This document shows positions 1 through 13,070 of a stretch of DNA of 15,825 nucleotides, piece after piece. Below the pieces are notes generated by a model. It did no database searches. It saw only the letters and a list, made by a program, of their open reading frames with translations, and was not told where the DNA came from. Origin of the DNA: a virus (Duplodnaviria > Heunggongvirae > Uroviricota > Caudoviricetes); IMG/VR virus record IMGVR_UViG_2778261180_000007; one strand, written 5' to 3'. How positions within the stretch are numbered: position 1 is the first letter of the stretch; the number at the start of each line of letters is the position of its first letter. A program made the position numbers and the translations under genes.

Positions 1-483
1 ATGACGAAGAAAAAAGCACATAAACCTGGTTCAGCGACCATCGCGCTTAACAAGCGCGCCCGTCACGAATACTTTATCGAAGAAGAGTTCGAAGCGGGAC
101 TTGCCCTGCAAGGCTGGGAGGTTAAATCCCTGCGCGCAGGAAAAGCCAATATCAGCGACAGCTACGTCCTTCTGCGTGACGGAGAGGCATTTCTGTTTGG
201 CGCTAACATCACGCCAATGGCCGTGGCCTCCACGCATGTGGTGTGCGATCCTACCCGTACCCGCAAGTTACTTCTCAACCAGCGCGAACTGGACTCATTG
301 TACGGTCGCGTCAATCGAGAAGGCTATACCGTAGTGGCGCTCTCCCTGTACTGGAAAAATGCCTGGTGCAAAGTGAAAATCGGCGTCGCCAAAGGTAAAA
401 AACAGCACGATAAACGTTCAGATATCAAAGAACGCGAATGGCAGGTGGATAAAGCACGTATCATGAAAAACGCCCACCGTTAA
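1..483 (+). CDS. smpB: SsrA-binding protein SmpB
   Basis: 160-aa ORF starting at the ATG at base 1. The translation ([25 protein letters not shown]...) is recognisable as SmpB, and it sits directly upstream of the tmRNA gene as in enterobacteria. Confidence 0.95.
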
Positions 484-697: not shown

Positions 698-1060
698 GGG
701 GCTGATTCTGGATTCGACGGGATTTGCGAAACCCAAGGTGCATGCCGAGGGGCGGTTGGCCTCGTAAAAAGCCGCAAAAAATAGTCGCAAACGACGAAAA
801 CTACGCTTTAGCAGCTTAATAACCTGCTTAGAGCCCTCTCTCCCTAGCCTCCGCTCTTAGGACGGGGATCAAGAGAGGTCAAACCCAAAAGAGATCGCGT
901 GGAAGCCCTGCCTGGGGTTGAAGCGTTAAAACTTAATCAGGCTAGTTTGTTAGTGGCGTGTCCGTCCGCAGCTGGCAAGCGAATGTAAAGACTGACTAAG
1001 CATGTAGTACCGAGGATGTAGGAATTTCGGACGCGGGTTCAACTCCCGCCAGCTCCACCA
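698..1060 (+). ncRNA. ssrA: tmRNA (transfer-messenger RNA, SsrA), 363 nt
   Basis: Starts GGGGCTGATTCTGGATTCGACGGG and ends GGTTCAACTCCCGCCAGCTCCACCA (tRNA-like acceptor/T-arm with CCA). Internal tag reading frame GCA AAC GAC GAA AAC TAC GCT TTA GCA GCT TAA at 787-819 encodes (A)ANDENYALAA. Confidence 0.95.
1038..1060. other. attL core: last 23 nt of ssrA (TTCAACTCCCGCCAGCTCCACCA)
   Basis: A P4-type integrase gene follows ssrA directly, and an imperfect copy of this segment recurs at 12922-12943 at the far end of the P4-like gene set. Confidence 0.4.
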
Positions 1061-1093: not shown

Positions 1094-1128
1094 AAAGCCC
1101 GCATGGCACAAGCTCTGCGGGCTTTTTT
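1094..1128 (+). terminator. intrinsic terminator downstream of ssrA
   Basis: GC-rich hairpin AAAGCCCGCA...TGCGGGCTT followed by TTTTTT (1122-1128). Confidence 0.5.
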
Positions 1129-1172
1129 GTGTCTACCGTTGTCCGAGGATATCCAGCTAAATCCAGTGATTA

Positions 1173-1224
1173 TTGGTATACGTTTAGGTATACGGTAGGA
1201 TGTATACCTAAACGCGTATACCAA
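1173..1224. repeat. inverted pair of a 21-bp motif (TTGGTATACGnTTAGGTATAC) upstream of int; candidate integrase arm-type or operator sites
   Basis: TTGGTATACGTTTAGGTATAC at 1173-1193 and its near-perfect reverse complement GTATACCTAAACGCGTATACCAA at 1202-1224. A third copy, TTGGTATACGATTAGGTATAC, lies at 12848-12868 next to the attR-like site. Confidence 0.5.
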
Positions 1225-1244
1225 TTCATGAAGGAACGGCTAAA

Positions 1245-2444
1245 GTGGCAAGAACGACACGCCCCCTGACCAACACAGAAGTTCTGCGCGCTAAAGCGTT
1301 AGAAAAGGATCTAACGTTGCATGATGGCGATGGTCTTTTTCTGCTCGTTAAAACGAACGGTAAGAAGTTATGGCGTTTCCGTTATCAACGTCCAACAACA
1401 AAGCAGCGAACAATGATGGGGCTAGGTGCATTTCCCGCCCTCTCACTTGCTGACGCCCGGCGGTTAAGAGCGGATTACCTTTCCTTGCTAGCCAACGGAA
1501 TTGACCCGCAAATTCAAGCTGAGATTGTAGAGGAACAGCAACAAATTGCACTGGACAGTATTTTTTCAACAGTCGCCGCTAACTGGTTCCAGCTTAAAAG
1601 CAAAAGCGTTACCCCTGATTACGCGAAAGACATTTGGCGTTCACTAGAAAAAGATGTATTCCCTGCCATCGGTGAGATTCCAGTTCAGCAAATCAAAGCC
1701 CGAATGCTTGTTGAAGCCCTAGAGCCAATCAAAGCACGTGGGGCGCTAGAGACGGTACGTCGTCTGGTGCAGCGCATTAATGAGATAATGATTTATGCCG
1801 TAAACACAGGTCTGATTGATGCCAATCCAGCATCAGGTATTGGGATGGCCTTTGAGAAACCTAAAAAGCAAAACATGCTTACTCTCCGGCCAGAAGAATT
1901 ACCGAAGCTGATGCGTTCTTTAATTATGTCTAATCTATCCGTTCCGACACGTTGTCTTATTGAGTGGCAACTACTGACCCTTGTGCGCCCTTCTGAAGCC
2001 TCCGGTACAAGGTGGGCAGAGATCGATCTCGCAGCAAAGGTCTGGACGATTCCACCCGAACGGATGAAGGCCAAGCGTGAGCACATTGTTCCTCTATCTT
2101 CTCAGGCATTAGAAATTCTGGAAGTAATGAAACCAATCAGTGCTCATCGTGAACATGTTTTTCCCAGTAGAAATGACCCGAAACAGTCAATGAATAGCCA
2201 AACTGCTAATGCAGCACTCAAACGCATTGGTTATGGTGGGAAATTAGTTGCTCATGGGTTACGATCCATCGCAAGTACTGCACTCAATGAAGCCGGATTT
2301 AATCCTGATGTAATTGAAGCAGCTCTAGCACATAGTGATAAAAATGAAGTACGAAGAGCTTATAACCGCTCAACGTACCTTAATAAAAGAATAGAACTTA
2401 TGGCATGGTGGGGAAGGTTTGTTTATAAAACAAACCTTTTATAA
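1245..2444 (+). CDS. int: P4-family tyrosine integrase (site-specific recombinase)
   Basis: 399-aa ORF with a GTG start preceded by AAGGA. N-terminal arm-binding-like region (LHDGDGLFLLVKTNGKKLWRFRYQRP) and C-terminal catalytic signature (AHGLRS ... AHSDKNEVRRAYNRSTY) typical of P4-like integrases. Position directly 3' of a tmRNA gene. Confidence 0.9.
   Translation: MARTTRPLTNTEVLRAKALEKDLTLHDGDGLFLLVKTNGKKLWRFRYQRPTTKQRTMMGLGAFPALSLADARRLRADYLSLLANGIDPQIQAEIVEEQQQIALDSIFSTVAANWFQLKSKSVTPDYAKDIWRSLEKDVFPAIGEIPVQQIKARMLVEALEPIKARGALETVRRLVQRINEIMIYAVNTGLIDANPASGIGMAFEKPKKQNMLTLRPEELPKLMRSLIMSNLSVPTRCLIEWQLLTLVRPSEASGTRWAEIDLAAKVWTIPPERMKAKREHIVPLSSQALEILEVMKPISAHREHVFPSRNDPKQSMNSQTANAALKRIGYGGKLVAHGLRSIASTALNEAGFNPDVIEAALAHSDKNEVRRAYNRSTYLNKRIELMAWWGRFVYKTNLL
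2414..2444 (+). terminator. possible terminator hairpin inside the 3' end of int
   Basis: AAGGTTTG (2414-2421) pairs with CAAACCTT (2431-2438) and is followed by TTTTATAA. The int stop (2442-2444) directly abuts the stop of the convergent ATPase gene (2445-2447). Confidence 0.3.
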
Positions 2445-4142
2445 CTATACTTTAAAGAACTTATTTGTCGAAGATAACTCAAGGATCGAGTTACTCATCA
2501 TCATTTTCATGTCCGCATCTTCTGAAAACTTATCACTTAATATTGACACAATATATTGACCATTTATATTATTTGCTTCAAAAAATATATCTCTAATTTG
2601 ATTCACATCGACATCTTCAATGCTATCATGAATAACAAAAGTAGGTCTCTTTAATTTAATCTTATCCACAAACTTAATATAAGCCAAATCAAATGCAGTT
2701 ATTTCACCTTTCTTCTTGCCGCCATTACTGTTTGGTGTAACGCATGATATATCAAAATTACACTTACCTTTATCAACATCAAAGGAAAGATCAAAAATGT
2801 ATCTTTCCCCATATATTTCCTTTGTAAGATCACCAAAAAACTCATTGAAAATCTCGATGTTTTTTTCCAGACCTTGAACTGCTAACTCTATTTCTAAAAG
2901 TAATTTCTCTCGACTATCTTCAAGAGATTTTATAAGGGCATTTGTATCATTAATACGCGAAAGATTAGACTCTATGCTAGCAAGATTTTCACGTAATTCA
3001 GTAAGCTTATTAAATAATTGATTTATAGACTTTAATGTTTCAGGTTCTTTGATTGTTCTAAATAGGGATGATTCTTGTTCATGAAGATCATTGATTTTTT
3101 TATTTACAGTTTCTATTTCTTCTTTTTTCTTTAACAATTCAGATTCTAAAAAACTGATTTTATTCTTAATAATATCATTATGGAACAATACCATTTCTTC
3201 GTAAGTCCTTTTAAGTTCCCCATTAAAATAAATCCCCGCAGAATTATATATTTCCATTAAATCATTTTCTACAAGTTGTGTGATATTATTCTTCAAGGAC
3301 AAGATCGATTCTTCGATATTTCTTACTCGCATATTTAAGGAGGCATAGCTCAAAGAATAATCACTGATATTCTTCTGTATTTCTGAAAGCTTTTTTAAGC
3401 TTTCATCATGACTATCTTTAAAATCGAAGTTCTTAATATTTCTTTCCGCCTCTGCAATTTCTTTCTTCAGAGGCTTAATCATTTTTGCTAAAACAGTCTC
3501 TCTATTTGGATTCCTGTATGCGGCAAGATATGTCTTTTGTTTTTTTATCTCTTTGTTAAAATCACCTTTTTTCTTTATCAGAGGTAACCCATTGAACCCA
3601 AATAAAAACAAGTATAATAGATCATAGACATCAGGAGTCGTATTCCCATGTAAGAAATTAAGCGTTTTCTGCATTTTATCATTCGTGTTTCTAATAAATT
3701 TATGCGAAACATTCCTCAGTGATGGCTTATCTGTAGTTAACCCAAACACTGCTTGAGCTATAAATTCAGAATATTGTTTCTTATCTACTTCAACATCATT
3801 TAAAAAATATTTTGAATTTTTATCATCAATAGATATTATACGTGAAACAACTGCCTTTTTATTTTCTACCGTATTGAAATCCAATGAAAATTTCAAAACA
3901 TTATTATTAATTAACGATACAATTTCAGGTATATCTTTTCCAAACTCTGCATCATGATAAATATCATGACCTGATGACATAAATAAATAATCTAAAACAC
4001 GCGATAATGTGGATTTACCTACACTATTGCCGCTATCTTTGCCTGATGTTCTTTTATTTACAATTAGATTCAGACCGTCTTTAAACGTCACCTCTCTTAC
4101 AAGAGAGTCATTTTTTAAAATAATAAGTTTATTGAGCCTCAT
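2445..4142 (-). CDS. ABC-type (SMC/RecF-like) ATPase with long central coiled-coil; candidate defence-system ATPase
   Basis: 565-aa ORF. N-terminal strand-plus-P-loop layout (LNLIVNKRTSGKDSGNSVGKSTL, Walker A lysine K43). About 300 aa of heptad-like K/E/L/N-rich sequence. C-terminal signature-like SNGGKKKG followed by Walker-B-like TFVIHDSIEDVD. Start overlaps the upstream gene by 14 nt; GGTGGA lies upstream of the ATG. Confidence 0.75.
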   Translation of the reverse strand: MRLNKLIILKNDSLVREVTFKDGLNLIVNKRTSGKDSGNSVGKSTLSRVLDYLFMSSGHDIYHDAEFGKDIPEIVSLINNNVLKFSLDFNTVENKKAVVSRIISIDDKNSKYFLNDVEVDKKQYSEFIAQAVFGLTTDKPSLRNVSHKFIRNTNDKMQKTLNFLHGNTTPDVYDLLYLFLFGFNGLPLIKKKGDFNKEIKKQKTYLAAYRNPNRETVLAKMIKPLKKEIAEAERNIKNFDFKDSHDESLKKLSEIQKNISDYSLSYASLNMRVRNIEESILSLKNNITQLVENDLMEIYNSAGIYFNGELKRTYEEMVLFHNDIIKNKISFLESELLKKKEEIETVNKKINDLHEQESSLFRTIKEPETLKSINQLFNKLTELRENLASIESNLSRINDTNALIKSLEDSREKLLLEIELAVQGLEKNIEIFNEFFGDLTKEIYGERYIFDLSFDVDKGKCNFDISCVTPNSNGGKKKGEITAFDLAYIKFVDKIKLKRPTFVIHDSIEDVDVNQIRDIFFEANNINGQYIVSILSDKFSEDADMKMMMSNSILELSSTNKFFKV

Positions 4143-4362
4143 ATACTATTCCACCATTTCCATCTAACTCAATTGCGCCGATTATGAAAAGCCAATCTAA
4201 TGAGTAAAGAAAAAGATCAAACGATAACTCGAAGATAGAATTTACTAAATCATACAATCGAGATATTTCAATGACCATTGAATCATTACTTTGAAAGATC
4301 CCAAGCACTACACTTCCAATATATACAGGATTTGCTTTTGGATCCGTATCAATTGTAATCAT
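4129..4362 (-). CDS. hypothetical small protein (77 aa) with hydrophobic C-terminal half; operon member
   Basis: ORF preceded by GGAG with 8-nt spacing. Overlaps both neighbours by 14 nt, indicating coupled translation. Hydrophobic segment FDLFLYSLDWLFIIGAIEL. No family recognised. Confidence 0.5.
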   Translation of the reverse strand: MITIDTDPKANPVYIGSVVLGIFQSNDSMVIEISRLYDLVNSIFELSFDLFLYSLDWLFIIGAIELDGNGGIVYEAQ

Positions 4363-4897
4363 TTGGATTCTCCAGCACTATACATTCGATAATAGCATAG
4401 CTAACAATCATACGAATGCCATAATCAATATCTTCCTGTAAAAACTCTGAATCTAAATTAGAACACGAACTAACTGTTTCTTGAGCAGCTCTAATAACAT
4501 CATCTATAATATTATCCGAGTTTTTCCTTATGAGTTCAATGTTAAATGGTTTCTCATAAAGACCATATAATCCCAATGCAGTATTATAATAACCTCTAAA
4601 CTGTCTTTTCAATTTGACACTACCATTTAAAATTATAGCATCAAGTGTTTTTATGGATTCATCAACTAGCAGAGCATCTTCTTTATAAAGTTCAGCTACC
4701 CATCTGTTTCTTTTAAGATCATTGAATTCTATTTTAACATCAATATTTGATGCTATTCTGTTTAAGTTTTGCTCGCTACCAACTGAATTAGAAATAATTT
4801 CAATTAACTTACCAATAACACTGGCTCTTAACATTCTTGGCTGGTTGTTTATATGCACAGGACCAGTATTATTATTGAAATTAACACCAGAACCCAT
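4349..4897 (-). CDS. hypothetical protein (182 aa); operon member
   Basis: ORF preceded by GGGGG. Starts 3 nt after the stop of the upstream small gene. N-terminus carries an NNNTGPVHINN motif that repeats the C-terminus of the upstream protein. No catalytic motif recognised. Confidence 0.65.
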   Translation of the reverse strand: MGSGVNFNNNTGPVHINNQPRMLRASVIGKLIEIISNSVGSEQNLNRIASNIDVKIEFNDLKRNRWVAELYKEDALLVDESIKTLDAIILNGSVKLKRQFRGYYNTALGLYGLYEKPFNIELIRKNSDNIIDDVIRAAQETVSSCSNLDSEFLQEDIDYGIRMIVSYAIIECIVLENPNDYN

Positions 4898-4899
4898 AA

Positions 4900-5172
4900 T
4901 TACCCCCGATTATCAATATTCACAGGACCATTATTATCTTGAAAATATTGAGAACGCGCTCCTTGATTAATGAAGTTTCTATTAGTTGTAATTTTTACAA
5001 TCTGGGAATTAAGATCATTTATTGTAATGTTAAGTTGTTTTATCTCATTATCTTTCTTGGTTACTTGCATAGTCTGATATATTGCTATACATCCAGAGAT
5101 CACCCCAACAATATATCCAAAGGCACTTACATATTCGTTAGCAAGTAGTGATGCAATCATTTGGAGCTCCAT
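4900..5172 (-). CDS. small membrane-anchored protein (90 aa; 86 aa from the alternative ATG at 5160); first gene of the operon
   Basis: Predicted N-terminal transmembrane helix (IASLLANEYVSAFGYIVGVISGCIAIY) followed by a charged helical stretch. The second in-frame ATG at 5160 has a better-placed GGAG. C-terminus NNGPVNIDNRG. Confidence 0.55.
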   Translation of the reverse strand: MELQMIASLLANEYVSAFGYIVGVISGCIAIYQTMQVTKKDNEIKQLNITINDLNSQIVKITTNRNFINQGARSQYFQDNNGPVNIDNRG

Positions 5173-5429
5173 TTCAAGCTGAAAGATTTAAAGTCACAAC
5201 AATCTCATCCTATTAGGGTAGCTAGGATAGCAACTCATGAAGAGTAAATAAATAGGTATTAATCATTATCGTTTACATGATCTAATTCAACATAGATCCA
5301 CTCATGGCCTCTATACTTTCTCATAAACACAGTGTTTAGCTATGTGGGCTTAAGAGGTCTAAATTGATGTACTTACTTTATCAATTGATATAACCCCAAA
5401 TTATAATCGTTTCATATCATTGACGCGCA

Positions 5430-5448
5430 GTGCTTTCCCCGCCTCGCC
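5430..5448 (-). other. cos site: 19-nt cohesive-end sequence GGCGAGGCGGGGAAAGCAC (minus-strand reading)
   Basis: Plus-strand GTGCTTTCCCCGCCTCGCC is the exact reverse complement of the cohesive-end sequence I recall for P2 and P4. It lies between psu and the cargo operon, where cos sits in an integrated P4. Confidence 0.75.
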
Positions 5449-5548
5449 CGCCCGCTTTGCGGGGCGGTTTTAATGCAGTTGCACTGACACGCTCAGACCG
5501 CGCCGGGAATGGCGCGGTCTGCAGAAAATGAGGCAGGGAAACGCATGC

Positions 5549-5582
5549 AAAGCCATGCACCTTATCGATGCATGGCTTTTTT
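5549..5582 (+). terminator. hairpin plus T-tract between cos and the psu 3' end
   Basis: AAAGCCATGCA (5549-5559), loop CCTTATCGA, TGCATGGCTTT (5569-5579), then a T run. May stop read-through into or out of the late operon; orientation of function uncertain. Confidence 0.35.
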
Positions 5583-5612
5583 CAGTAAAAACGGGCGGAT
5601 TTTCGGGGAATT

Positions 5613-6185
5613 TTACACAGACTGACGTGATGCCAGTTGCGCACTTTTACGCGAAAAAATCATGTTCTGCGCAGGGGTGAATTTTTCACGGCTGTCATCC
5701 ACCGAAGCCGCGTCAGGTCTGAATCCAATGGCCGTTAAAATGTCGCTATCCTGTGCGGAATAATTAATTTTTTCACCCTTCGCAAGCCAGGACAGGAGGG
5801 CTTCACGCAGGGCATCTGTGGCACGCTGTATGGCACAGTTTCGGGCAATGGCCGTCAGCTCACTGTAGCCCATCAGCTCCGGTGCCAGTGCCGCCGCCAG
5901 TGCTGTGCCGTGCTGCTGCATAAAATCATTCAGCCGGTCGCGGATGCTGATGTGCTGAACGGCTTCATGCGAACGAATATAACGACCGGCGGCCTGATTC
6001 ACCTGCCATTTTCTGACTTCGATAATATTGCGTAATTCGTCCAGGCGACTGACGTTTCTGCCTTCTCCTGACAGAAGCCGCAGATATTCCTGTTCGGCCG
6101 CAGCCAGCTCATTTTTGCGTTGCAGCCATGCTGCTTTGTTATTCTGACAGGTGTCAAAGGCCTGCTGTAAGGCTGTGCTTTCCAT
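5613..6185 (-). CDS. psu: Psu (polarity suppression / capsid decoration protein), P4-like
   Basis: 190-aa ORF, the size of P4 Psu, last gene of the sid-delta-psu array next to cos. Sequence MESTALQQAFDTCQNN... recognised as Psu-like. Confidence 0.85.
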   Translation of the reverse strand: MESTALQQAFDTCQNNKAAWLQRKNELAAAEQEYLRLLSGEGRNVSRLDELRNIIEVRKWQVNQAAGRYIRSHEAVQHISIRDRLNDFMQQHGTALAAALAPELMGYSELTAIARNCAIQRATDALREALLSWLAKGEKINYSAQDSDILTAIGFRPDAASVDDSREKFTPAQNMIFSRKSAQLASRQSV

Positions 6186-6258
6186 CGTTATCTCTTTCTC
6201 ATCATGCTGAAGAATAAAAATACGGTGTGCGGCGACGGCCGGTGTTAACCGGCAGCCC

Positions 6259-6759
6259 TCATTCCAGACGCAGCGAATATGATTGTGTTTTTAACCGTAC
6301 TGGCGGCAGTTCCTGTTTTTCATGCAGGCTTTCTGCAAGCTCGTCCGGCGTGACCGGGCGGACAATGAAGCGGTTGATGGTCTGAAGCGTTTTAAACACC
6401 AGACCACAGCCCGGATCCGTGCACACATAAAAACGCTCGGTGACTTCCTGAGACAGACGCCGCGATGTTCTTGACAGTGCAAGGCCTTTACATCTCCGAC
6501 AACAATATCCGGTAACAAGCATTCTTTTCGGGCGTTTCATACTGCCGGAGGCTGACGTCAGTGAATCGCGGTATCTCTGTTTGCCTGAAATGTATTCCAT
6601 TCCTGAATCTTTACTGTCAGAGAAAAAGCTTTCACTCGCTTCAAATGTCGCAGAGCAATAAATATTCCGGCACTGTGCAATCATTATCTTGGTGCCATCG
6701 TCCATGAAATGTGCGCGACGGGTGTGAGCAACATGTCCACACGACGGGCAGTAAATCAT
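6259..6759 (-). CDS. delta: Delta, Ogr/Delta-family zinc-finger late-gene activator (tandem Ogr-like repeats)
   Basis: 166-aa ORF with two Ogr-like units, each carrying CPxCGH...C-x-N-x-x-C(S)ATF-type Cys motifs (MIYCPSCGHVAHTRR...QCRNIYCSATF and ...CRRCKG...CTDPGCGLVF). ATGA overlap with the sid stop. Confidence 0.85.
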   Translation of the reverse strand: MIYCPSCGHVAHTRRAHFMDDGTKIMIAQCRNIYCSATFEASESFFSDSKDSGMEYISGKQRYRDSLTSASGSMKRPKRMLVTGYCCRRCKGLALSRTSRRLSQEVTERFYVCTDPGCGLVFKTLQTINRFIVRPVTPDELAESLHEKQELPPVRLKTQSYSLRLE

Positions 6760-7490
6760 GACAGCAGTCCTCTGGCCTTAAGCTCTGCTCCCTGCTGGTC
6801 TATTTTGTCCTGCCACACCTTGCGCTGTGCCGGTGTGCCTGCCACCTCATAATCCATGTGCGGGAGTGTTGCCGCTGACAGTCCGGTCAGCCGGAGAACC
6901 GGCTCACCGGTGAGGCTGATTTGCATCTGTTTTATTTTCTGTTCCAGCGATGATTTCACCTGCTGCATGACAGCCTTTTCCGGTGCGACGTAGCCCTGAT
7001 GGCCGGTGGTGTTGGCGAGCGGATTTTCCTGTACCAGGATGCTCAGATGCATTGCCCGGACAAGCACCTCACAGGTTTCATTCAGGGCGTGTTCCAGCTC
7101 ATGCTCTGCATACAGACTCAGAAGGTGATGATGTGCCTTCCGGTAGGCGGTGGCCGTGCTGTCACACGCCCCTTTCAGGCGTTCACGTTCAAAATTCAGC
7201 ACCACGGCCAGATTGTCATATTCCTGTACCAGCTCCCGGCGTGCCACGCGCTCAATGTGGCGCTGTTTCAGCTCGTCGCTCAGGACACCACCGGCTGCAC
7301 GAAAGGCCGTGCGCCAGTCGTCAGCGTCGTTTCCGTCGGCCTGCGCCAGCGCATTTTTTTCCTGCTCTGCCCGTTCAATGGCCGTGACGGTCTCATCCAT
7401 CAGGCGGGCGTTCTCAAGATGGGCGGCTCTGGCCTTTTCCAGTTGTGCCAGCGCGGGTTGCAGATATTCAGGGATGGTGTTGTCAGACAT
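6756..7490 (-). CDS. sid: Sid (capsid size determination, external scaffold), P4-like
   Basis: 244 aa from the ATG at 7490, which is preceded by AGGAG (MSDNTIPEYLQPALAQ...). The ORF track's earlier ATG at 7556 lacks a Shine-Dalgarno and would overlap the promoter region. Confidence 0.8.
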   Translation of the reverse strand: MSDNTIPEYLQPALAQLEKARAAHLENARLMDETVTAIERAEQEKNALAQADGNDADDWRTAFRAAGGVLSDELKQRHIERVARRELVQEYDNLAVVLNFERERLKGACDSTATAYRKAHHHLLSLYAEHELEHALNETCEVLVRAMHLSILVQENPLANTTGHQGYVAPEKAVMQQVKSSLEQKIKQMQISLTGEPVLRLTGLSAATLPHMDYEVAGTPAQRKVWQDKIDQQGAELKARGLLS

Positions 7491-7562
7491 TTTCCGGCTC
7501 CTCGTCACTTCAGGTTGAGAAAATTGTGACGTACACCGGACAACAACACGACGCATTGCAGA

Positions 7563-7580
7563 TGTGCCAGCCCTGACACA
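7563..7580 (-). promoter_or_regulatory. candidate Delta/Ogr activator site (TGT-N12-ACA) of the sid late promoter
   Basis: TGTGCCAGCCCTGACACA. Its centre is about 82 bp upstream of the sid ATG, compatible with a dyad centred near -55 and a ~27-nt leader. Confidence 0.35.
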
Positions 7581-7659
7581 GGAGACTCATCCTCAGACCG
7601 GCAAGCCAGGAAAAGGTCGCAGGAAAAACCGGCTTACTGTTTGTTTTTTTATATTTTAC

Positions 7660-7763
7660 TGTTCACCTCTGTTCACCATAAGAAAAAAGATAAGTAATAC
7701 AGTAAGTTAAAGGGTGAACAATCGCAGTAATGACTGTTCACCGTCTGTTCACCACTGTTCACC
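7660..7763. repeat. iteron cluster: six copies of the P4 type-I octamer TGTTCACC; candidate alpha-binding origin
   Basis: TGTTCACC at 7660-7667, 7670-7677, 7735-7742, 7746-7753 and 7756-7763; inverted copy GGTGAACA at 7713-7720. Flanked by a T-rich tract (7641-7657). Lies between the divergent sid and vis promoters. Confidence 0.7.
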
Positions 7764-7922
7764 CGTTGATGGGCTTTTTGTGCTGTTTATTACTGTTTGT
7801 TTTTATTAATTCGCCGGGAATGAATAAGAAAAAACGATTTGTATTTCACTATAAAAATTACGAATTGCTTTAAGTGGCTTTAAATGACTTTAAGTGGAGA
7901 TGAACAAAAAACACACAAGCAT

Positions 7923-7940
7923 TGTAAGGCTGCCGGAACA
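7923..7940 (+). promoter_or_regulatory. candidate Delta-dependent late-left promoter activator site (TGT-N12-ACA) upstream of vis
   Basis: TGTAAGGCTGCCGGAACA. Centre is about 111 bp upstream of the vis ATG, and about 395 bp upstream of the putative early promoter. Confidence 0.3.
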
Positions 7941-8042
7941 AATCCCCCCTGTTGCGTCTGCTGAAAATATTCACAAAATAAAACGCTACCCGAAGCCGGA
8001 CGGACTTATCCGGTGCTGTATGGACATTAACGAGGTAGCCCG

Positions 8043-8309
8043 ATGCAAGCTGTTTTTTCTTCCCCGTCTCCTGCCCCTGTGACGCCACTGATGCCGCTGC
8101 CGGACATCACACAGGAGCGTTTTTTACGTCTGCCGGAAGTGATGCACCTGTGCGGCCTGTCACGCTCGACCATCTATGAACTCATCCGTAAGGGGGAATT
8201 TCCGCCGCAGGTGAGTCTTGGCGGTAAAAATGTGGCCTGGCTGCACTCTGAAGTCACCGCATGGATGGCCGGCCGCATTGCCGGACGCAAACGGGGGTAT
8301 GACGCATGA
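8043..8309 (+). CDS. vis: Vis/AlpA-family DNA-binding regulator (excision and late-transcription control)
   Basis: 88-aa ORF, the size of P4 orf88/Vis. AlpA-type helix-turn-helix core [48 protein letters not shown] lies 7 nt upstream of the ATG. Confidence 0.8.
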
Positions 8310-8896
8310 TGATGCCCGCTCTGCAAAAACTCCCTTTTTCTGGCTTGCCTTTTTCCGGCATTTGCGGATATAGTTTTTCCGTTGCCGCAAAATCGGCAGC
8401 CGGGCGTGAGAACCCGTGTAACTCGAAGGCGACATATGACGCGCCATGCGTCTTTTTTTGTGTCGCAATCAACGCCACAGAGCGCCAGATTATGGTGTGG
8501 CGTGTGGTTTGCCGTGCAGGTATGATCCTGTTCGCAATCGCATGTTATGCCACTGAGTCAATGGTAGCTCAGGCGGGGCAGCCTCCGGGCTGGCCGGTAT
8601 TCTTCGAGGCCGGTATTCTCACCCCCGTCTGGGCTATCGCCATCGAGCGTGAGAACTCCGGCGATAGCAGTTATTTGCTACTCGAAGGAGGCTGCCTTAT
8701 GGCTACAACCCTTACCCCCTCACACCCTGAATTTGTCTTTGTGTTTGCGGCTGTCCGTCGCGCAGACCGTCATCCCCGTATCTGTATGCTTCGCACCGTC
8801 GCCGGTGATGAACGCAGTGCCCGCCGTTCCCTTGTCCGTGACTATGTGCTCTCCCTTGCTGCCCGTCTGCCGGTGGTGGAGGTGTCCCGTGCGTAA
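8306..8896 (+). CDS. eta: eta-like long ORF (194-196 aa, three consecutive ATGs) enclosing kil and spanning the immunity region
   Basis: Open frame from an ATGATGATG start that overlaps the vis stop (ATGA). Matches my recollection of P4 eta: about 197 codons, three candidate start codons, kil nested in the same frame at the 3' end. Coding status itself is uncertain. Confidence 0.4.
8345..8374 (+). promoter_or_regulatory. candidate early promoter (PLE-like)
   Basis: TTGCCT (8345-8350), 18-bp spacer, TATAGT (8369-8374); alternative -10 GATATA with 16-bp spacer. Lies just upstream of seqA. Confidence 0.3.
8406..8687 (+). promoter_or_regulatory. P4-type RNA immunity region: seqA (8406-8428), seqB within a candidate CI RNA (8602-8622), seqC (8649-8687)
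   Basis: seqA GTGAGAA...CTCGAAG and seqC GTGAGAA...CTCGAAG are each complementary to seqB CTTCGAG...TTCTCAC (reverse complement GTGAGAAtaccggcCTCGAAG). seqC runs into the GGAGG Shine-Dalgarno of kil. Confidence 0.45.
8699..8896 (+). CDS. kil: Kil-like small protein (65 aa)
   Basis: ATG at 8699 preceded by GGAGG that overlaps seqC. 65 codons, the size I recall for P4 Kil. Shares frame and stop with eta. Confidence 0.5.
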
Positions 8897-9176
8897 TAAA
8901 AAAGCCCCTCAGACCGTCTCAGCACGTCATGACGCCCGTGAACACCTCAGCATTGAGGCTTACCATAAGCTCAACCGCGCCAGCGCCGTATCCCAGTTTG
9001 TTGGGGGTGATTTGATTCACCGTGAACTCTCCGGCCTGCATCAGCTCTACATTCCGCATATTTTCAGCTACCTGAATGAAGATATTGATTTTGTGCTGAA
9101 TGAGCTGAAAGCCAAAGGCCTGTGCCGCGATTTTCTCGCCCAGCAGAAAGACCGGGGAGACAGGACGCATGTTTGA
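8889..9176 (+). CDS. Eps-like protein (95 aa), candidate helper-derepression factor
   Basis: GTG start at 8889 preceded by GGAGG and overlapping the kil stop. Stop overlaps the start of the orf151-like gene. Assignment is by position and size relative to P4 epsilon. The ORF track's longer form (from 8649) lies in the immunity region. Confidence 0.5.
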
Positions 9177-9624
9177 TTTTCCCCAGCCCGGTGAGATTTA
9201 CCGTTCTGCCGGTTTTCCCGATGTGGCCGTAGTCGGCATTCTGGAAGACGGTATTCCGTGGGAAATGCCGTACCGCTGCCCGGACATTGTCTGGAACCCG
9301 TACCGCCGTAAATTCAGTATTCTTGTGCGTATCCTCGCCGACGGGCGCACCACAGACATCCCGCTGGGGCGTTTTCTGCGGGAATTTACCTGTGACCGTC
9401 CTGACCTGTTTAAACGCAGCCCCGTAAACCGGCATGCGGTACTGAAAGAAATGGCCGGAGACCCGGAATTACAGAAATGGCGGGAGAAATATCTGGATAT
9501 TTACCCGCAGGAGCCTGTTCCGGTCAGCCGGGCGGCACCGGTGGCGCGGGAATGGCGGGAAATTCCCCGCACGGAGCCTGACCCGGAAATCACCCCGGAT
9601 AACAGTTACCGCAATTATCTGTAA
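9169..9624 (+). CDS. P4 orf151-like hypothetical protein (151 aa)
   Basis: Size and position (between eps and alpha) match P4 orf151. Start overlaps the upstream stop. Confidence 0.7.
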   Translation: MFDFPQPGEIYRSAGFPDVAVVGILEDGIPWEMPYRCPDIVWNPYRRKFSILVRILADGRTTDIPLGRFLREFTCDRPDLFKRSPVNRHAVLKEMAGDPELQKWREKYLDIYPQEPVPVSRAAPVAREWREIPRTEPDPEITPDNSYRNYL

Positions 9625-9759
9625 TTAAAAAACGACACCCGAAAAATTAAATGTGCGTATTCGCGCAGGGATACGCACGTCTTCAGGAGACGCAGATATG
9701 CCTTATCAGTTAATGCAACCGGCACGGAATGCAGTCATCTGTCACAGGGAGGAAAGCAA

Positions 9760-10080
9760 ATGAAAACACCCTTACCGCCCGTCTTACGCGCTGCCCTTTA
9801 CCGTCGCGCTGTCGCCTGTGCCTGGCTGACCGTGTGCGAACGTCAGCACCGCTACCCGCATCTCACCCTTGAGTCACTGGAGGCGGCCATCGCCGCTGAG
9901 CTGGAAGGCTTTTATCTGCGCCAGCACGGTGAGGAAAAAGGGCGTCAGATAGCCTGTGCCCTGCTGGAAGATTTAATGGAATCCGGCCCCCTGAAGGCCG
10001 CGCCGTCGCTGTCCTTTCTCGGGCTGGTTGTGATGGATGAACTCTGTGCCCGTCACATAAAAGCGCCGGTACTGCACTGA
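9760..10080 (+). CDS. P4 orf106-like hypothetical protein (106 aa)
   Basis: GGGAGG lies 7 nt upstream of the ATG. Sits directly upstream of alpha. A 21-codon upstream ORF overlaps its start. Confidence 0.65.
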
Positions 10081-10094
10081 AGGAGAACAACACC

Positions 10095-12428
10095 ATGAAA
10101 ATGAACGTAACCGCCACCGTCAGCCATGCACTCGGCCACTGGCCGCGTATTCTCCCGGCGCTGGGGATTCAGGTGCTGAAAAACCGTCATCAGCCCTGTC
10201 CGGTCTGTGGCGGGAGTGACCGCTTCCGTTTTGATGACAGGGAGGGGCGCGGCACCTGGTACTGCAATCAGTGTGGTGCCGGTGACGGCCTGAAACTGGT
10301 TGAAAAGGTGTTTGGTGTTTCCCCGTCCGACGCGGCCGCAAAGGTGGCTGCCGTGACCGGCAGCCTGCCCCCGGCTGACCCGGCAGTGACGGCCGCCGCC
10401 GGTGCTGAAACAGACGCTGCCCGGAAGAACGCCGCCGCACTGGCACAAACCCTGATGGCAAAAACCCGTCCCGGAACCGGTAACGCCTACCTGACCCGCA
10501 AGGGCTTTCCCGGCCGGGAATGCCGGATGCTGACCGGCACACACAGAGCCGGTGGCGTGAGCTGGCGCGCCGGTGACCTTGTGGTGCCACTGTATGACGA
10601 CAGCGGCGAACTGGTTAACCTTCAGTTAATCAGTGCTGACGGCCGTAAGCGCACCCTGAAAGGCGGACAGGTCAGGGGCACCTGTCACATCCTTGAAGGA
10701 CAGAATCAGGCCGGAAAACGTCTGTGGATAGCGGAGGGATACGCGACCGCACTTACCGTGCATCACCTGACCGGTGAAACGGTGATGGTGGCGCTTTCTT
10801 CCGTGAATCTCCTTTCTCTGGCCAGCCTTGCCCGGCAGAAGCATCCGGCCTGTCAGATTGTCCTTGCTGCTGACCGTGACCTCAGCGGTGACGGCCAGAA
10901 AAAAGCCGCCGCAGCCGCAGATGCGTGTGAAGGTGTTGTTGCCCTGCCGCCGGTCTTCGGTGACTGGAATGATGCCTTCACGCAGTACGGCGGGGAAGCC
11001 ACCCGTAAGGCCATTTATGATGCCATCCGGCCACCGGCTGAAAGCCCGTTCGACACCATGAGCGAAGCGGAGTTTTCCGCCATGAGTACCAGCGAAAAGG
11101 CCATGCGTATCTATGAGCATTACGGCGAGGCGCTCGCGGTTGATGCCAACGGCCAGCTTCTGTCCCGTTATGAAAATGGTGTCTGGAAGGTGCTGCCACC
11201 ACAGGACTTTGCCCGGGATGTGGCCGGGCTGTTTCAGCGGCTGCGCGCGCCGTTCTCCTCCGGGAAGGTGGCCTCCGTGGTGGACACCCTGAAGCTGATT
11301 ATTCCGCAGCAGGAAGCCCCCTCCCGCCGCCTGATTGGCTTTCGTAACGGCGTGCTCGACACGCAGAACGGCACGTTCCACCCGCACAGTCCGTCACACT
11401 GGATGCGCACCCTGTGCGATGTGGATTTCACCCCACCGGTGGAAGGGGAAACGCTGGAAACCCACGCCCCCGCGTTCTGGCGCTGGCTTGACCGTGCCGC
11501 CGGTGGCCGTGCGGAAAAACGCGACGTGATTCTGGCCGCACTGTTTATGGTGCTGGCAAACCGCTATGACTGGCAGCTCTTTCTGGAGGTGACCGGTCCC
11601 GGCGGAAGCGGCAAAAGTATCATGGCCGAAATAGCCACCCTGCTGGCCGGGGAGGATAACGCCACGTCGGCCACCATTGAGACGCTGGAATCCCCGCGTG
11701 AACGTGCCGCGTTAACTGGCTTCTCACTGATACGCCTGCCGGACCAGGAAAAATGGAGCGGCGACGGAGCCGGACTCAAGGCCATCACCGGCGGCGATGC
11801 AGTGTCCGTTGACCCGAAATACCGGGATGCGTACTCCACGCACATCCCGGCGGTGATTCTGGCCGTGAACAATAACCCGATGCGCTTCACCGACCGCAGC
11901 GGCGGCGTGTCACGCCGGCGGGTGATTATTCACTTCCCGGAACAGATAGCCCCGCAGGAGCGCGACCCGCAACTTAAGGACAAAATCACCCGCGAGCTGG
12001 CGGTCATCGTGCGTCACCTGATGCAGAAGTTCAGCGACCCGATGCTCGCCCGGTCACTGCTTCAGTCCCAGCAGAACTCAGACGAGGCACTGAACATCAA
12101 ACGGGATGCCGACCCGACGTTTGATTTTATCGGCTATCTGGAAACCCTGCCGCAGACCAGCGGCATGTATATGGGGAACGCCAGTATCATCCCGCGTAAC
12201 TACCGTAAATACCTCTATCACGCCTATCTGGCCTACATGGAGGCAAACGGCTACCGGAATGTACTCAGTCTGAAAATGTTCGGGCTGGGGCTGCCGGTGA
12301 TGCTGAAGGAATACGGGCTGAATTACGAGAAGCGCCATACCAAACAGGGGATACAGACCAACCTGACGCTGAAAGAGGAAAGCTACGGCGACTGGCTGCC
12401 AAAATGTGACGACCCTGCAACAACCTGA
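10095..12428 (+). CDS. alpha: Alpha: P4-type primase-helicase replication protein
   Basis: 777 aa, the size of P4 alpha. AGGAG Shine-Dalgarno. N-terminal zinc motif CPVCGGSDRFRFDD...CNQCG. Toprim-like EGYATAL and AADRD. Helicase Walker A VTGPGGSGKS. Iteron arrays lie on both sides. Confidence 0.9.
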   Translation: MKMNVTATVSHALGHWPRILPALGIQVLKNRHQPCPVCGGSDRFRFDDREGRGTWYCNQCGAGDGLKLVEKVFGVSPSDAAAKVAAVTGSLPPADPAVTAAAGAETDAARKNAAALAQTLMAKTRPGTGNAYLTRKGFPGRECRMLTGTHRAGGVSWRAGDLVVPLYDDSGELVNLQLISADGRKRTLKGGQVRGTCHILEGQNQAGKRLWIAEGYATALTVHHLTGETVMVALSSVNLLSLASLARQKHPACQIVLAADRDLSGDGQKKAAAAADACEGVVALPPVFGDWNDAFTQYGGEATRKAIYDAIRPPAESPFDTMSEAEFSAMSTSEKAMRIYEHYGEALAVDANGQLLSRYENGVWKVLPPQDFARDVAGLFQRLRAPFSSGKVASVVDTLKLIIPQQEAPSRRLIGFRNGVLDTQNGTFHPHSPSHWMRTLCDVDFTPPVEGETLETHAPAFWRWLDRAAGGRAEKRDVILAALFMVLANRYDWQLFLEVTGPGGSGKSIMAEIATLLAGEDNATSATIETLESPRERAALTGFSLIRLPDQEKWSGDGAGLKAITGGDAVSVDPKYRDAYSTHIPAVILAVNNNPMRFTDRSGGVSRRRVIIHFPEQIAPQERDPQLKDKITRELAVIVRHLMQKFSDPMLARSLLQSQQNSDEALNIKRDADPTFDFIGYLETLPQTSGMYMGNASIIPRNYRKYLYHAYLAYMEANGYRNVLSLKMFGLGLPVMLKEYGLNYEKRHTKQGIQTNLTLKEESYGDWLPKCDDPATT

Positions 12429-12440
12429 CCCTCATGACTC

Positions 12441-12800
12441 ATCTGACCGGCATCTGCCGGTCTTTTTTCATCCCTGAATCCCCCGAAGGTGAACAATCCA
12501 CTGTTCACCCTTCACCGTATATTCACCCGTTATCACACTGAAATTAAAAGAGAAAAATGAAAGGTGAACAGTGTGAACAATCAAATCAAAAAAAACTTTT
12601 TTCTCCCTGTGTGATTTCAGTACGGGGGATTAATCACCGGTATGAGTCACACCGGCAGAATGCCGGAGGTGAAGAATCGAATGTTCACCCTTCACCCATT
12701 ATTCACCACCTATCAAACTGAAATAAAAGGAGAAAAAAGAAAGATGAACAGTGTGAACAGTTCTTCCGAAAAAAAATTTTTTTCCTGTACGATATAGCAT
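12441..12800. repeat. two tandem ~180-bp imperfect direct repeats with TGTTCACC/GGTGAACA iterons and A8/T6-7 tracts; cis-replication-region-like
   Basis: Unit 1: GGTGAACA 12488-12495, TGTTCACC 12502-12509, degenerate copies 12510-12528, GGTGAACA 12563-12570, GTGAACA 12573-12579, A8cT6 12588-12602. Unit 2 repeats this 180 bp later (TGTTCACC 12682-12689, A8T7 12769-12783). Each unit begins with a CCGGCA...TGCCGG hairpin. Confidence 0.65.
12445..12468 (+). terminator. intrinsic terminator of the alpha (left) operon
   Basis: GACCGGCA, loop TC, TGCCGGTC, then TTTTTT, 17 nt after the alpha stop. Confidence 0.55.
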
Positions 12801-12847
12801 CAATCCAAGTAAAAATGCGCTTTCATTTCACATTAACTTACAGCCAT

Positions 12848-12868
12848 TGGTATACGATTAGGTATACA
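12848..12868. repeat. third copy of the 21-bp TTGGTATACGnTTAGGTATAC motif (candidate arm-type site)
   Basis: TTGGTATACGATTAGGTATAC, 54 bp before the attR-like sequence. Confidence 0.4.
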
Positions 12869-12921
12869 CACAAAAACTGAATTAAACAAAATCATTAAAA
12901 ATCAAAGCAATACAATATTTA

Positions 12922-12943
12922 TTCAAACTCCGCCAGCCCACCA
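12922..12943. other. attR-like degenerate copy of the ssrA 3' end (TTCAAACTCCGCCAGCCCACCA)
   Basis: Aligns to the attL core TTCAACTCCCGCCAGCTCCACCA with three single-base indels. Lies immediately beyond the last P4-like feature and before the chromosomal autotransporter gene. Confidence 0.35.
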
Positions 12944-13070
12944 ATCATGATTGGACGGTATAAGGACAACACCAATAAAAACAGGAAGTTAGCAGTCTCA
13001 GCAGGACACCGACCAGACGGTGAAGAGACATAAAAGGATACGCAAAGGAGCCGCGGCTCCTGGTGACATG

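Follow-up and report, generated by a model that had tools for sequence, protein, structure and literature searches.

A P4-like satellite carries an AT-rich, exchangeable cargo of short-Lamassu type with a candidate membrane effector

Introduction

The P4-like phage satellites have a defence hotspot that lies between the integrase gene, int, and cos/psu (Rousset et al. 2022; PMC9122126). In Lamassu, a DNA-sensing defence system, the LmuB2-LmuC complex holds LmuA in its monomeric form, and the sensing of DNA ends leads to LmuA release, oligomerization (tetramerization) and activity (Haudiquet et al. 2025; PMC12663957); the same paper reports a group of these systems in the words "Clade O ... seemingly lost the effector domain". 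We have analyzed a 15,825-nucleotide stretch of viral DNA (IMG/VR record IMGVR_UViG_2778261180_000007; Caudoviricetes), which is referred to below, at its full length, as the window. Judged by gene content, cos site and end repeats, the window contains a P4-like phage satellite that spans about 11.9 kb and has inserted into the 3' end of the Escherichia coli tmRNA gene, ssrA; its hotspot is occupied by four genes that are markedly AT-rich. We consider it probable that this slot holds a recombination-exchanged cargo of ABC-3C/short-Lamassu-like type, which would act by means of sensing by an ATPase and killing by the products of two further genes, orf182 and orf90.

Much of this setting has been described before. 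The slot as a swappable defence locus and the catalogue entry for this particular cassette have been known since 2022; Table S1A of PMC9122126 lists the cassette (WP_000562050, WP_000534626, WP_000628292 and WP_021522835) as four hypothetical proteins. The cargo is a member of a large group of Lamassu-like systems that seem to have no effector. Real novelty is confined to the fourth gene and the paired tails that its product shares with its neighbor, the role of which we put forward as a hypothesis.

Results

Domain matches and gene order identify the cargo as a four-gene operon of ABC-3C/short-Lamassu type on the minus strand, encoding an ATPase, a middle component (MC6), orf182 and orf90. 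The LmuB-like ABC ATPase (2445-4142, minus strand; 565 amino acids (aa), GC 0.294) has a DUF2326 C-terminal head (Pfam, 1.3e-17) and matches the PADLOC models PDC-M68B (1.2e-45) and LmuB (4.3e-16, full length). Its Walker A motif reads GNSVGKST, and its Walker B motif, FVIHDS, fits the hhhhDS variant of the form hhhhD[Q/S/T/E] that has been described for short LmuB (PMC12663957); in one source a 95% homologue of this protein goes under the name YydD. The next gene (4129-4362, minus strand; 77 aa) is in the LmuC position. Its product is assigned by Pfam to ABC-3C middle component 6 (4.4e-13; 49.5 bits, with the cut-off at 27.2) and is 38% identical to the MC6 protein of a Clostridium botulinum plasmid system. 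Two hallmarks of ABC-3C/Lamassu systems are present, namely an SMC-like ATPase with intact Walker A and B motifs and a putative central coiled coil, as judged from hidden Markov model (HMM) matches, motifs and predicted long helices, and a middle component encoded between the other two genes. NCBIfam models gave only far-below-threshold matches, and PADLOC had no model for MC6, orf182 or orf90.

The third protein, orf182 (4349-4897, minus strand; 182 aa), is LmuA-like and consists of a C-terminal domain (CTD) of CTD10 type only. The CTD10 match is weak in the window's protein and at threshold in its homologues, and the best Foldseek matches are YydB and LmuA, in the latter case to the C-terminal domain; taken together, the structural matches and CTD10 support the presence of an LmuA-type CTD. 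An N-terminal effector domain is absent, only about 24 residues preceding the CTD. The family is remarkably uniform in length at 182 aa, and a profile search of 1.84 billion representatives gave 271 clusters, of which nearly all of the best 150 are 180-210 aa long. In the few longer relatives the domain is C-terminal and stands behind HNH or SMEK_N, and HNH and SMEK are listed among the short-Lamassu effectors (PMC12663957). On these grounds, orf182 is best described as an LmuA-like protein without an enzymatic effector domain, and the whole as having a Lamassu-type sensor but not the canonical three-gene Lamassu composition.

The fourth gene, orf90 (4900-5172, minus strand), encodes a small protein, 86 aa long in its RefSeq version, with one hydrophobic helix (residues 14-32; Kyte-Doolittle 19-residue maximum 1.73), a helical middle and a conserved C-terminal tail; its homologues are found in the same taxa as those of orf182. 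Pfam and PHROG matches to orf90 were discarded as coiled-coil noise, and comparison with the sequences in the PDB gave no meaningful match. The C-terminal tail of orf90 (4903-4977, minus strand; …NQGARSQYFQDNNGPVNIDNRG) matches the N-terminal tail of orf182 (4835-4897, minus strand; MGSGVNFNNNTGPVHINNQPR), which mirrors it, is conserved in the homologues, and appears disordered in an AlphaFold2 (AF2) monomer model, the predicted local distance difference test score (pLDDT) being below 50. Local alignment of the two tails gives a score of 43, the mean for shuffled sequences being 20.4 (p<=0.001). No part of orf90 is better conserved than its tail, …QGARSQYFQDNNGPVNIDNRG, which hardly varies even among homologues with an overall identity as low as 47%.

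This arrangement recurs. We compared 13 loci with a CTD-only protein, comprising the window, Photorhabdus, Oleispira, Methylophilaceae, the C. botulinum plasmid and, from metagenomes, eight contigs that include a P2-like prophage (the 12 outside the window being L009-L011, L018 and L020-L027). In all 13 the gene for the CTD protein is immediately preceded by a small gene, the product of which has 63-122 aa and a hydrophobic helix near its N-terminus. The gene arrangement is thus that of an amyloid motif pair, in which two neighboring collinear genes encode a putative executioner that ends with the motif and a receptor-side protein that begins with it. For orf90 itself, this executioner assignment comes with no detectable homology to Pfam or PDB entries. 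The upstream small gene is found in none of the four control loci in which CTD10 is fused to HNH or SMEK, a difference of 13/13 against 0/4 (about 4e-4, exact test). Because the small gene accompanies only the CTD-only loci of this comparison, the small membrane protein appears to stand in for the missing effector domain.

The tails themselves are similar above composition-preserving shuffles at 10 of the 13 loci (p <=0.0002 to 0.011). There are at least three motif classes, F..N.GPV.I.N, ENSGDN.G.IAG.V.G.V and QQNNG.NS.NYQAEN.TV, and tails match within a locus and within a class, not across classes. Where tail residues are identical, the codons are identical at 33-67% of them, which implies that the similarity has been kept at the protein level; a recent DNA duplication as the source of the similarity was rejected on the basis of this codon divergence. 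We have not found the fourth gene and the paired tails of Lamassu-like systems described in the literature that we searched, and a full-text search for Lamassu together with amyloid returned nothing relevant.

How the two tails might work together can be read in more than one way. Our tentative proposal, the chances of which we put clearly below even, is that the effector of the "effector-less" Lamassu/ABC-3C clade is a separate membrane protein coupled to the sensor through co-evolving, N/G/Q-rich, amyloid-like tails, with the oligomerized LmuA-type CTD templating the executioner. To the alternative that no amyloid-like templating is involved we give nearly an even chance. The tails would then be either the fission relic of a membrane-anchored LmuA with a duplicated junction, or the elements of ordinary one-to-one binding, by strand pairing or by alternate docking on the ATPase-MC6 site. 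In a 248-aa protein from an ENA metagenome (P0003; …QYFQDNNGPVNIDN|QPRVLRAS…), orf90 and orf182 are naturally joined, in register, at the motif that they have in common. This fusion is in keeping with the non-amyloid alternative and also speaks for a partnership of the two proteins, although P0003 is a single database member that could be a real deletion or an assembly artefact. Templating is made less attractive by the conserved Gly-Pro in the motif class of the window, given that Bab no longer formed foci when a proline was introduced into its BASS11 motif (N100P; bioRxiv 10.1101/2024.11.07.622273), and by the three of the 13 tail pairs that are not significant in the shuffle test. Moreover, Lamassu is activated by LmuA release and tetramerization without any amyloid step (PMC12663957). 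A pure relic, however, would be expected neither to form the most conserved segment of orf90, nor to persist at the protein level while its codons diverge, nor to recur as three or more motif classes that match within each locus. None of these points counts against simple binding.

The earlier note on this DNA had described positions 2445-5420 as AT-rich, with long A/T runs and codons ending in A or T, and had placed the switch exactly at the int stop codon (2444/2445) on one side and within about 250 bp of cos on the other. The GC and codon-usage profile that it suggested confirms the block and corrects both edges. In 100-bp bins, mean GC is 0.304 in the cargo (n = 29) and 0.523 in the remaining part of the window (n = 125; Mann-Whitney p = 3.6e-16), and sliding GC stays at about 28-33% from roughly 2300 to 5420, with int at 46% and the P4 genes at 49-66% on either side; the lowest-GC segment of 2995 bp in the whole sequence starts at 2418. 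GC at third codon positions (GC3) is 0.21-0.25 in the four cargo genes and 0.38-0.70 in int, the P4 genes and the host genes, and A/T runs of at least 10 occur 6.7 times per kb in the cargo versus 1.0 elsewhere (about sevenfold). A two-change-point likelihood fit over 1100-7500 gives GC values of 0.469, 0.305 and 0.542 (log-likelihood ratio 156). The left change-point lies at 2296 (support 2272-2424), still within int and about 150 bp short of its end; GC is 0.48 before it and 0.33 after it. At the int stop codon itself the profile shows no step, with 0.34 on the left and 0.31 on the right over 100 bp. The right change-point at 5421 (support 5407-5426) reflects a rise in GC from 0.30 to 0.68 across 5423/5424, which is 6 bp from the cos 19-mer (5430-5448).

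Between the end of the last cargo open reading frame (ORF; 5172) and cos lie 250 bp of AT-rich, non-coding cargo DNA, and this leader of the operon (5173-5423) has no homology to other P4-like elements. Its best promoter-like match, on the plus strand at 5378-5407 (TTATCA-18-TATAAT), is a match to the consensus only and is directed at cos/psu, away from the cargo operon. At the other end of the cargo, int and the ATPase gene converge and their stop codons touch, with zero intergenic bases (2442-2447), and a promoter/terminator scan identified no terminator between these two genes. Elsewhere in the window there are two other short AT-rich dips (GC about 0.36), both non-coding and neither of them cargo: 7651-7950 is intergenic, between the leftward sid-delta-psu genes and the rightward early genes, and 12600-13050 is the crr/attR end of the satellite.

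From its position, the AT-rich block is the accessory cargo slot, that is, the known int-cos/psu defence hotspot of P4-like satellites: the cargo (about 2429-5423) is located between int and psu and ends 6 bp from cos. We compared the window with eight other E. coli P4-like elements at ssrA, as the earlier note had also suggested. All eight align to the window up to 2369-2433 and then again from 5423/5424, and between these edges they carry unrelated cargo: Hachiman (HamA and helicase), PARIS (AAA ATPase and DUF4435), a NACHT protein, a restriction endonuclease, SIR2 with IS5, and hypothetical proteins. The claim that a horizontally exchanged cassette has been placed in a conserved scaffold is upheld by this comparison. 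From 5424 rightward, identity between the window and the comparators is 97-99.9%, and the backbones of the comparators have a GC of 49-53%. About 2,250 of 5,426 complete E. coli genomes match the cos/psu side in parts, the matches beginning at 5413-5425 in those sampled down the ranking; 28 of the 5,426 contain the whole int-to-cargo region.

The left edge has a different character. The tyrosine integrase gene int (1245-2444, plus strand; 399 aa, ssrA-specific type) seems to be a recombination mosaic, its identity to the comparators of 76-99% dropping toward the cargo in discrete steps. In L013 identity is 98-100% to about 1874 and 77-81% thereafter, in L012 it declines from 97-99% through 87% to 75-82%, and the last 90 aligned bases (2325-2414) are the most diverged in nearly all comparators (71-82%). 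The AT-enriched 3' end of int (2297-2444, plus strand), which extends from the change-point through the zone where homology to the comparators ends, has a GC3 of 0.23 over the last 300 nt versus 0.43 over the first 900 nt. All nine int alleles are AT-richer at this end (GC3 0.23-0.32 versus 0.39-0.47 over the same intervals), and the idea that such an end is peculiar to the window's allele was rejected, as it is present in all eight related alleles. In the Siccibacter element with the same cassette the last approximately 90 int codons have 84.5% aa identity to those of the window and the remainder 52%. In E. coli, all 28 genomes that have the int allele of the window (>=99%) have this cargo as well, and the allele accompanies no other cargo; the next-closest alleles are at most 93% identical. 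The last few int codons vary between elements with different cargo, suggesting that each cargo brings its own int C-terminus.

From these homology patterns, the cargo would be replaced by recombination between satellites. One crossover would fall in the strongly conserved DNA beside cos, which starts 6 bp from the cohesive end. The position of the other would vary within int, and the 3' part of int would travel with the cargo. A fixed cos-flank crossover combined with a variable one in int would account for the razor-sharp right edge and the graded, mosaic left edge. The two edges of the hotspot thus differ in kind, one being base-fixed 6 bp from the terminase cut site and the other smeared through int. 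Mosaic int alleles, and linkage between the cargo and the 3' part of int, follow from this. The exact left breakpoint at the int stop that had been proposed is not what we find, since the unit of exchange reaches into int.

The sharp composition of the block had also been read as a sign of recent acquisition, and relatives of the cassette bear on this point. A scan of one genome per species found seven further cassette loci, which span four bacterial orders and have cassette GC values of 0.28-0.35. In Kosakonia, Tatumella, Siccibacter and Enterobacter (GC 0.31-0.33) the cassette lies between an int relative and psu/alpha, where these are present, and these loci are P4-like elements; cassette GC is 0.28 in Photorhabdus and 0.34-0.35 in Oleispira and Methylophilaceae, always below that of the flanks. 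Synonymous divergence (dS) from the window in those P4-like elements is 0.62-0.99 for the ATPase gene, 0.58-0.71 for orf182, 0.88-0.93 for the primase gene alpha and 1.2-1.7 for int. The ratio of nonsynonymous to synonymous divergence (dN/dS) is 0.05-0.14 for most cargo-gene comparisons, as expected under purifying selection. Homologues with 90-95% identity form a graded series within the Enterobacteriaceae, in Citrobacter, Salmonella, Klebsiella, Enterobacter and Cronobacter.

If the cassette had come recently from a low-GC donor and had not yet drifted to E. coli composition, the GC step would date the event, with breakpoints at the int stop and near cos. The large GC contrast, the 99.7-100% identity of the 28 E. 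coli copies, and the distant relatives (27-30% aa identity) on plasmids of low-GC Clostridium and Priestia are all in keeping with such an arrival. We nevertheless regard it as very improbable, because copies in four other genera, at a dS of 0.6-1.0 that is about that of alpha, still have a GC of 31-33%, because seven of the eight unrelated slot cargos of the comparators are equally AT-rich (0.32-0.35; the eighth, with IS5, 0.44), and because the int stop is not marked by a GC step. In addition, neither of two collections contained a close copy of the cassette; that of phages had no relative of the ATPase, and that of plasmids had only ATPase relatives at <=31% identity. The term "recently acquired" is consequently not supported.

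The composition of the seven unrelated cargos implies that low GC is a property of what the slot contains and not a date stamp, and the cross-genus dS at a GC of about 31% implies that the cassette has long evolved at this composition, much of that time inside P4-like elements. On this comparative evidence, low GC is an intrinsic, long-maintained property of the cassette, as of seven of the eight other cargos, and it does not date the arrival. The cassette has stayed at about 31% GC while roughly one substitution accumulated at each synonymous site, and in hosts whose own GC is 40-50%. Possible reasons for such persistent AT-richness are selection (for example H-NS silencing in the lysogen), mutation bias or constant shuttling. 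This constancy makes composition-based dating of defence cargo unsafe.

Some of the related loci deserve separate mention. In Siccibacter colletis (L006, 5900-9900) and an Enterobacter sp. (L007, 5900-9300) the P4-like element is decayed, with int fragmented and psu partial; the ATPase, MC6 and orf182 genes are intact in both, and orf90 is frameshifted in L006. A four-gene system of the same family is found in a P2-like prophage (L020, 3128-6003), beside the tail genes gpD and gpU, which indicates that the family also rides in helper-type phages; P2 and P4 are reported to exchange defence genes almost never (PMC13586616).

The remainder of the window is as expected for a P4-like satellite, having the cos 19-mer, the genes psu, delta, sid and alpha together with a CI/C4 immunity RNA in P4 order, and a terminal int. 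The gene order in matching genomes is smpB-ssrA-int-cargo-psu-delta-sid-...-alpha-ypjA. The left host flank consists of smpB (1-483, plus strand; GC 0.516), identified as an ORF and by the RefSeq annotation of identical DNA, and ssrA (698-1060, plus strand; ARAGORN, Rfam tmRNA 295.8 bits), the 3' end of which (about 1040-1060) forms the attL core. This end is imperfectly repeated at 12924-12943 (plus strand; CAAACTCCGCCAGCCCACCA), a copy that was assigned by eye as the putative attR core. Upstream of int, a 22-nt repeat (ATTGGTATACGTTTAGGTATAC) and an inverted copy of it (1172-1226; repeat family D14) are candidate arm-type sites for the integrase, and a third copy at 12846-12867, near the right end, probably has the same role. 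The backbone begins, on the minus strand, with 6 conserved bp followed by an exact match to the P2/P4 cos 19-mer (GGCGAGGCGGGGAAAGCAC; together 5424-5448), and 5449-12782 is 97.7% identical to positions 4291-11624 of phage P4. This P4 backbone contains psu (5613-6185), delta (6259-6759) and sid (6756-7556) on the minus strand, the isrK/C4 immunity RNA (8368-8644, plus strand; Rfam C4, isrK, c4-a1b1), the alpha primase gene (10095-12428, plus strand) and the crr repeats (12483-12782; repeat D1). To its right is part of the host autotransporter adhesin gene ypjA/ehaD (13459-15561, minus strand), an ORF with RefSeq annotation in matching DNA.

Two E. coli genomes show rearrangements around such elements. 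In strain 2013C-4974, which has the same cassette, an IS3-family element interrupts sid (L001, 19979-21245) and the rest of the satellite is rearranged beside lambdoid prophage genes, the cassette and int being unaffected. In strain SCU-172 the ssrA-type int of a P4-like element is immediately preceded by a P2-like prophage with integrase, cI and cII (L014, 1-6700), and one site thus apparently has helper and satellite in tandem.

Discussion

The reading that we favor for the cargo supposes that, by analogy with Lamassu, the ATPase-MC6 complex would hold orf182 and sense phage DNA ends or replication intermediates, upon which orf182 would be released and would oligomerize. Clustering of its N/G-rich tails might then recruit or template the matching tails of orf90, and assembly of orf90 in the membrane would kill the infected cell before the phage cycle is complete. 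Abortive infection of this type would protect the lysogen and the helper of the satellite.

Several points weigh against this reading, in addition to the three non-significant tail pairs and the Gly-Pro considered above. The likeness of the ATPase to LmuB is drawn from HMM matches and motifs. Comparison of the ATPase with solved structures, whether as a single sequence or as a 7-sequence profile, returned nothing relevant, and its AF2 model, built with 11 homologues that are all at least 90% identical, has a pLDDT of 44 and was not used for a fold search; long helices are seen at 186-436 in this low-confidence model. A consensus scan of the minus strand of the leader gave no convincing promoter for the cargo operon, and we infer the recombination route from patterns of identity. 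The anti-phage action of the cassette is a prediction by analogy. Finally, a P4 "Lamassu missing a known effector", which is only possibly related to the cassette of the window, gave no phage protection (PMC13586616). If that construct was this cassette without its small gene, the lack of protection would be explained.

The same result is also compatible with a cassette that serves the satellite itself, either as an addiction or stabilization module or by interfering with the P2 helper, with competing satellites or with plasmids. Lamassu/DdmABC does act against plasmids as well (PMC12663957), and an addiction module might be expected to stay intact in decayed P4 remnants such as those of Siccibacter and Enterobacter. 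Validated defence systems, however, fill the slots of sister elements (PMC9122126), the family occurs outside satellites, in a P2-like prophage, on plasmids and beside other integrases, and all four genes are under strong purifying selection. We therefore think it improbable that the cassette works for the satellite alone, and continue with defence against phages as its likely function.

Were the tails to act as proposed, SMC-type DNA sensors would for the first time be connected with amyloid signalling, and this might explain why such systems are scored as incomplete or inactive when the small upstream gene is omitted from the construct. If the pair is a signalling device of any kind, it shows how an SMC-type sensor can drive membrane killing. 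In either case there is a concrete reason to include the small gene when effector-lacking Lamassu-like systems are detected or cloned.

With respect to its location, the locus agrees with the hotspot of PMC9122126 and PMC13586616 (de Sousa et al. 2026) in its position beside cos, in its scaffold, and in having cargo that varies between near-identical elements. These two papers make no mention of the base composition of the slot, and we did not find in them the asymmetry between a sharp cos edge and a graded int edge. In phage P4 the slot holds gop, beta and cII with a leuX-type int; this cos-gop-beta-cII-int(leuX) segment is replaced in the window by other cargo and an ssrA-type int.

As to the cargo, it shares with the short Lamassu (LmuA-LmuB-LmuC; DdmABC) and ABC-3C systems (Krishnan et al. 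2020; PMC12663957) an SMC-like ATPase of about 565 aa with a Walker B motif of the form hhhhDS, a small middle component, a third protein with a fold nearest to the LmuA C-terminal domain, the gene order CTD protein, middle component, ATPase, and CTD relatives that carry HNH or SMEK. It differs from short Lamassu in that its LmuA-like protein has no effector domain, in having a fourth gene for a single-helix membrane protein with a shared tail motif (13/13 loci), in an ATPase that is too distant from the solved LmuB chains for detection by sequence, and in an MC6 protein of only 77 aa. A membrane partner is not mentioned in PMC12663957 for Clade O, in which the effector domain was seemingly lost. 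With regard to YydB-YydC-YydD of Bacillus subtilis (DUF2326 ABC-3C; integrative model 9a6c), Foldseek places orf182 closest to YydB, namely to its C-terminal part as modelled in the YydD-YydB complex, and YydD, like the ATPase of the window, is a DUF2326 ATPase. YydB, however, has 481 aa with a large N-terminal domain, in place of which orf182 has only its tail of about 24 residues.

The tail pair finds its counterpart elsewhere, in Bab/Agp, an Abi system of E. coli (BASS11; bioRxiv 10.1101/2024.11.07.622273), and in the Bell-NLR pairs (BASS1-10; bioRxiv 10.1101/2020.01.06.895854), two reports in which partners of ABC, SMC or Lamassu type are not mentioned. In our case an ABC-3C/Lamassu complex takes the receptor side, in place of an NLR or a TPR-GreAB-PIN protein; comparisons with Pfam and the PDB linked orf90 to neither Bell nor Babybell, and motif class A contains a conserved proline. 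As in orf90 and orf182, however, the genes of these pairs are adjacent and collinear, the small protein, of roughly 60-120 aa, has a hydrophobic helix near its N-terminus and ends in an N/G/Q-rich motif of about 15-25 residues, and the neighboring protein begins with a matching motif; several motif classes exist, and the setting is that of prophage or satellite defence hotspots. By analogy, then, amyloid signalling pairs are the closest analogue that the orf90/orf182 tail pair resembles.

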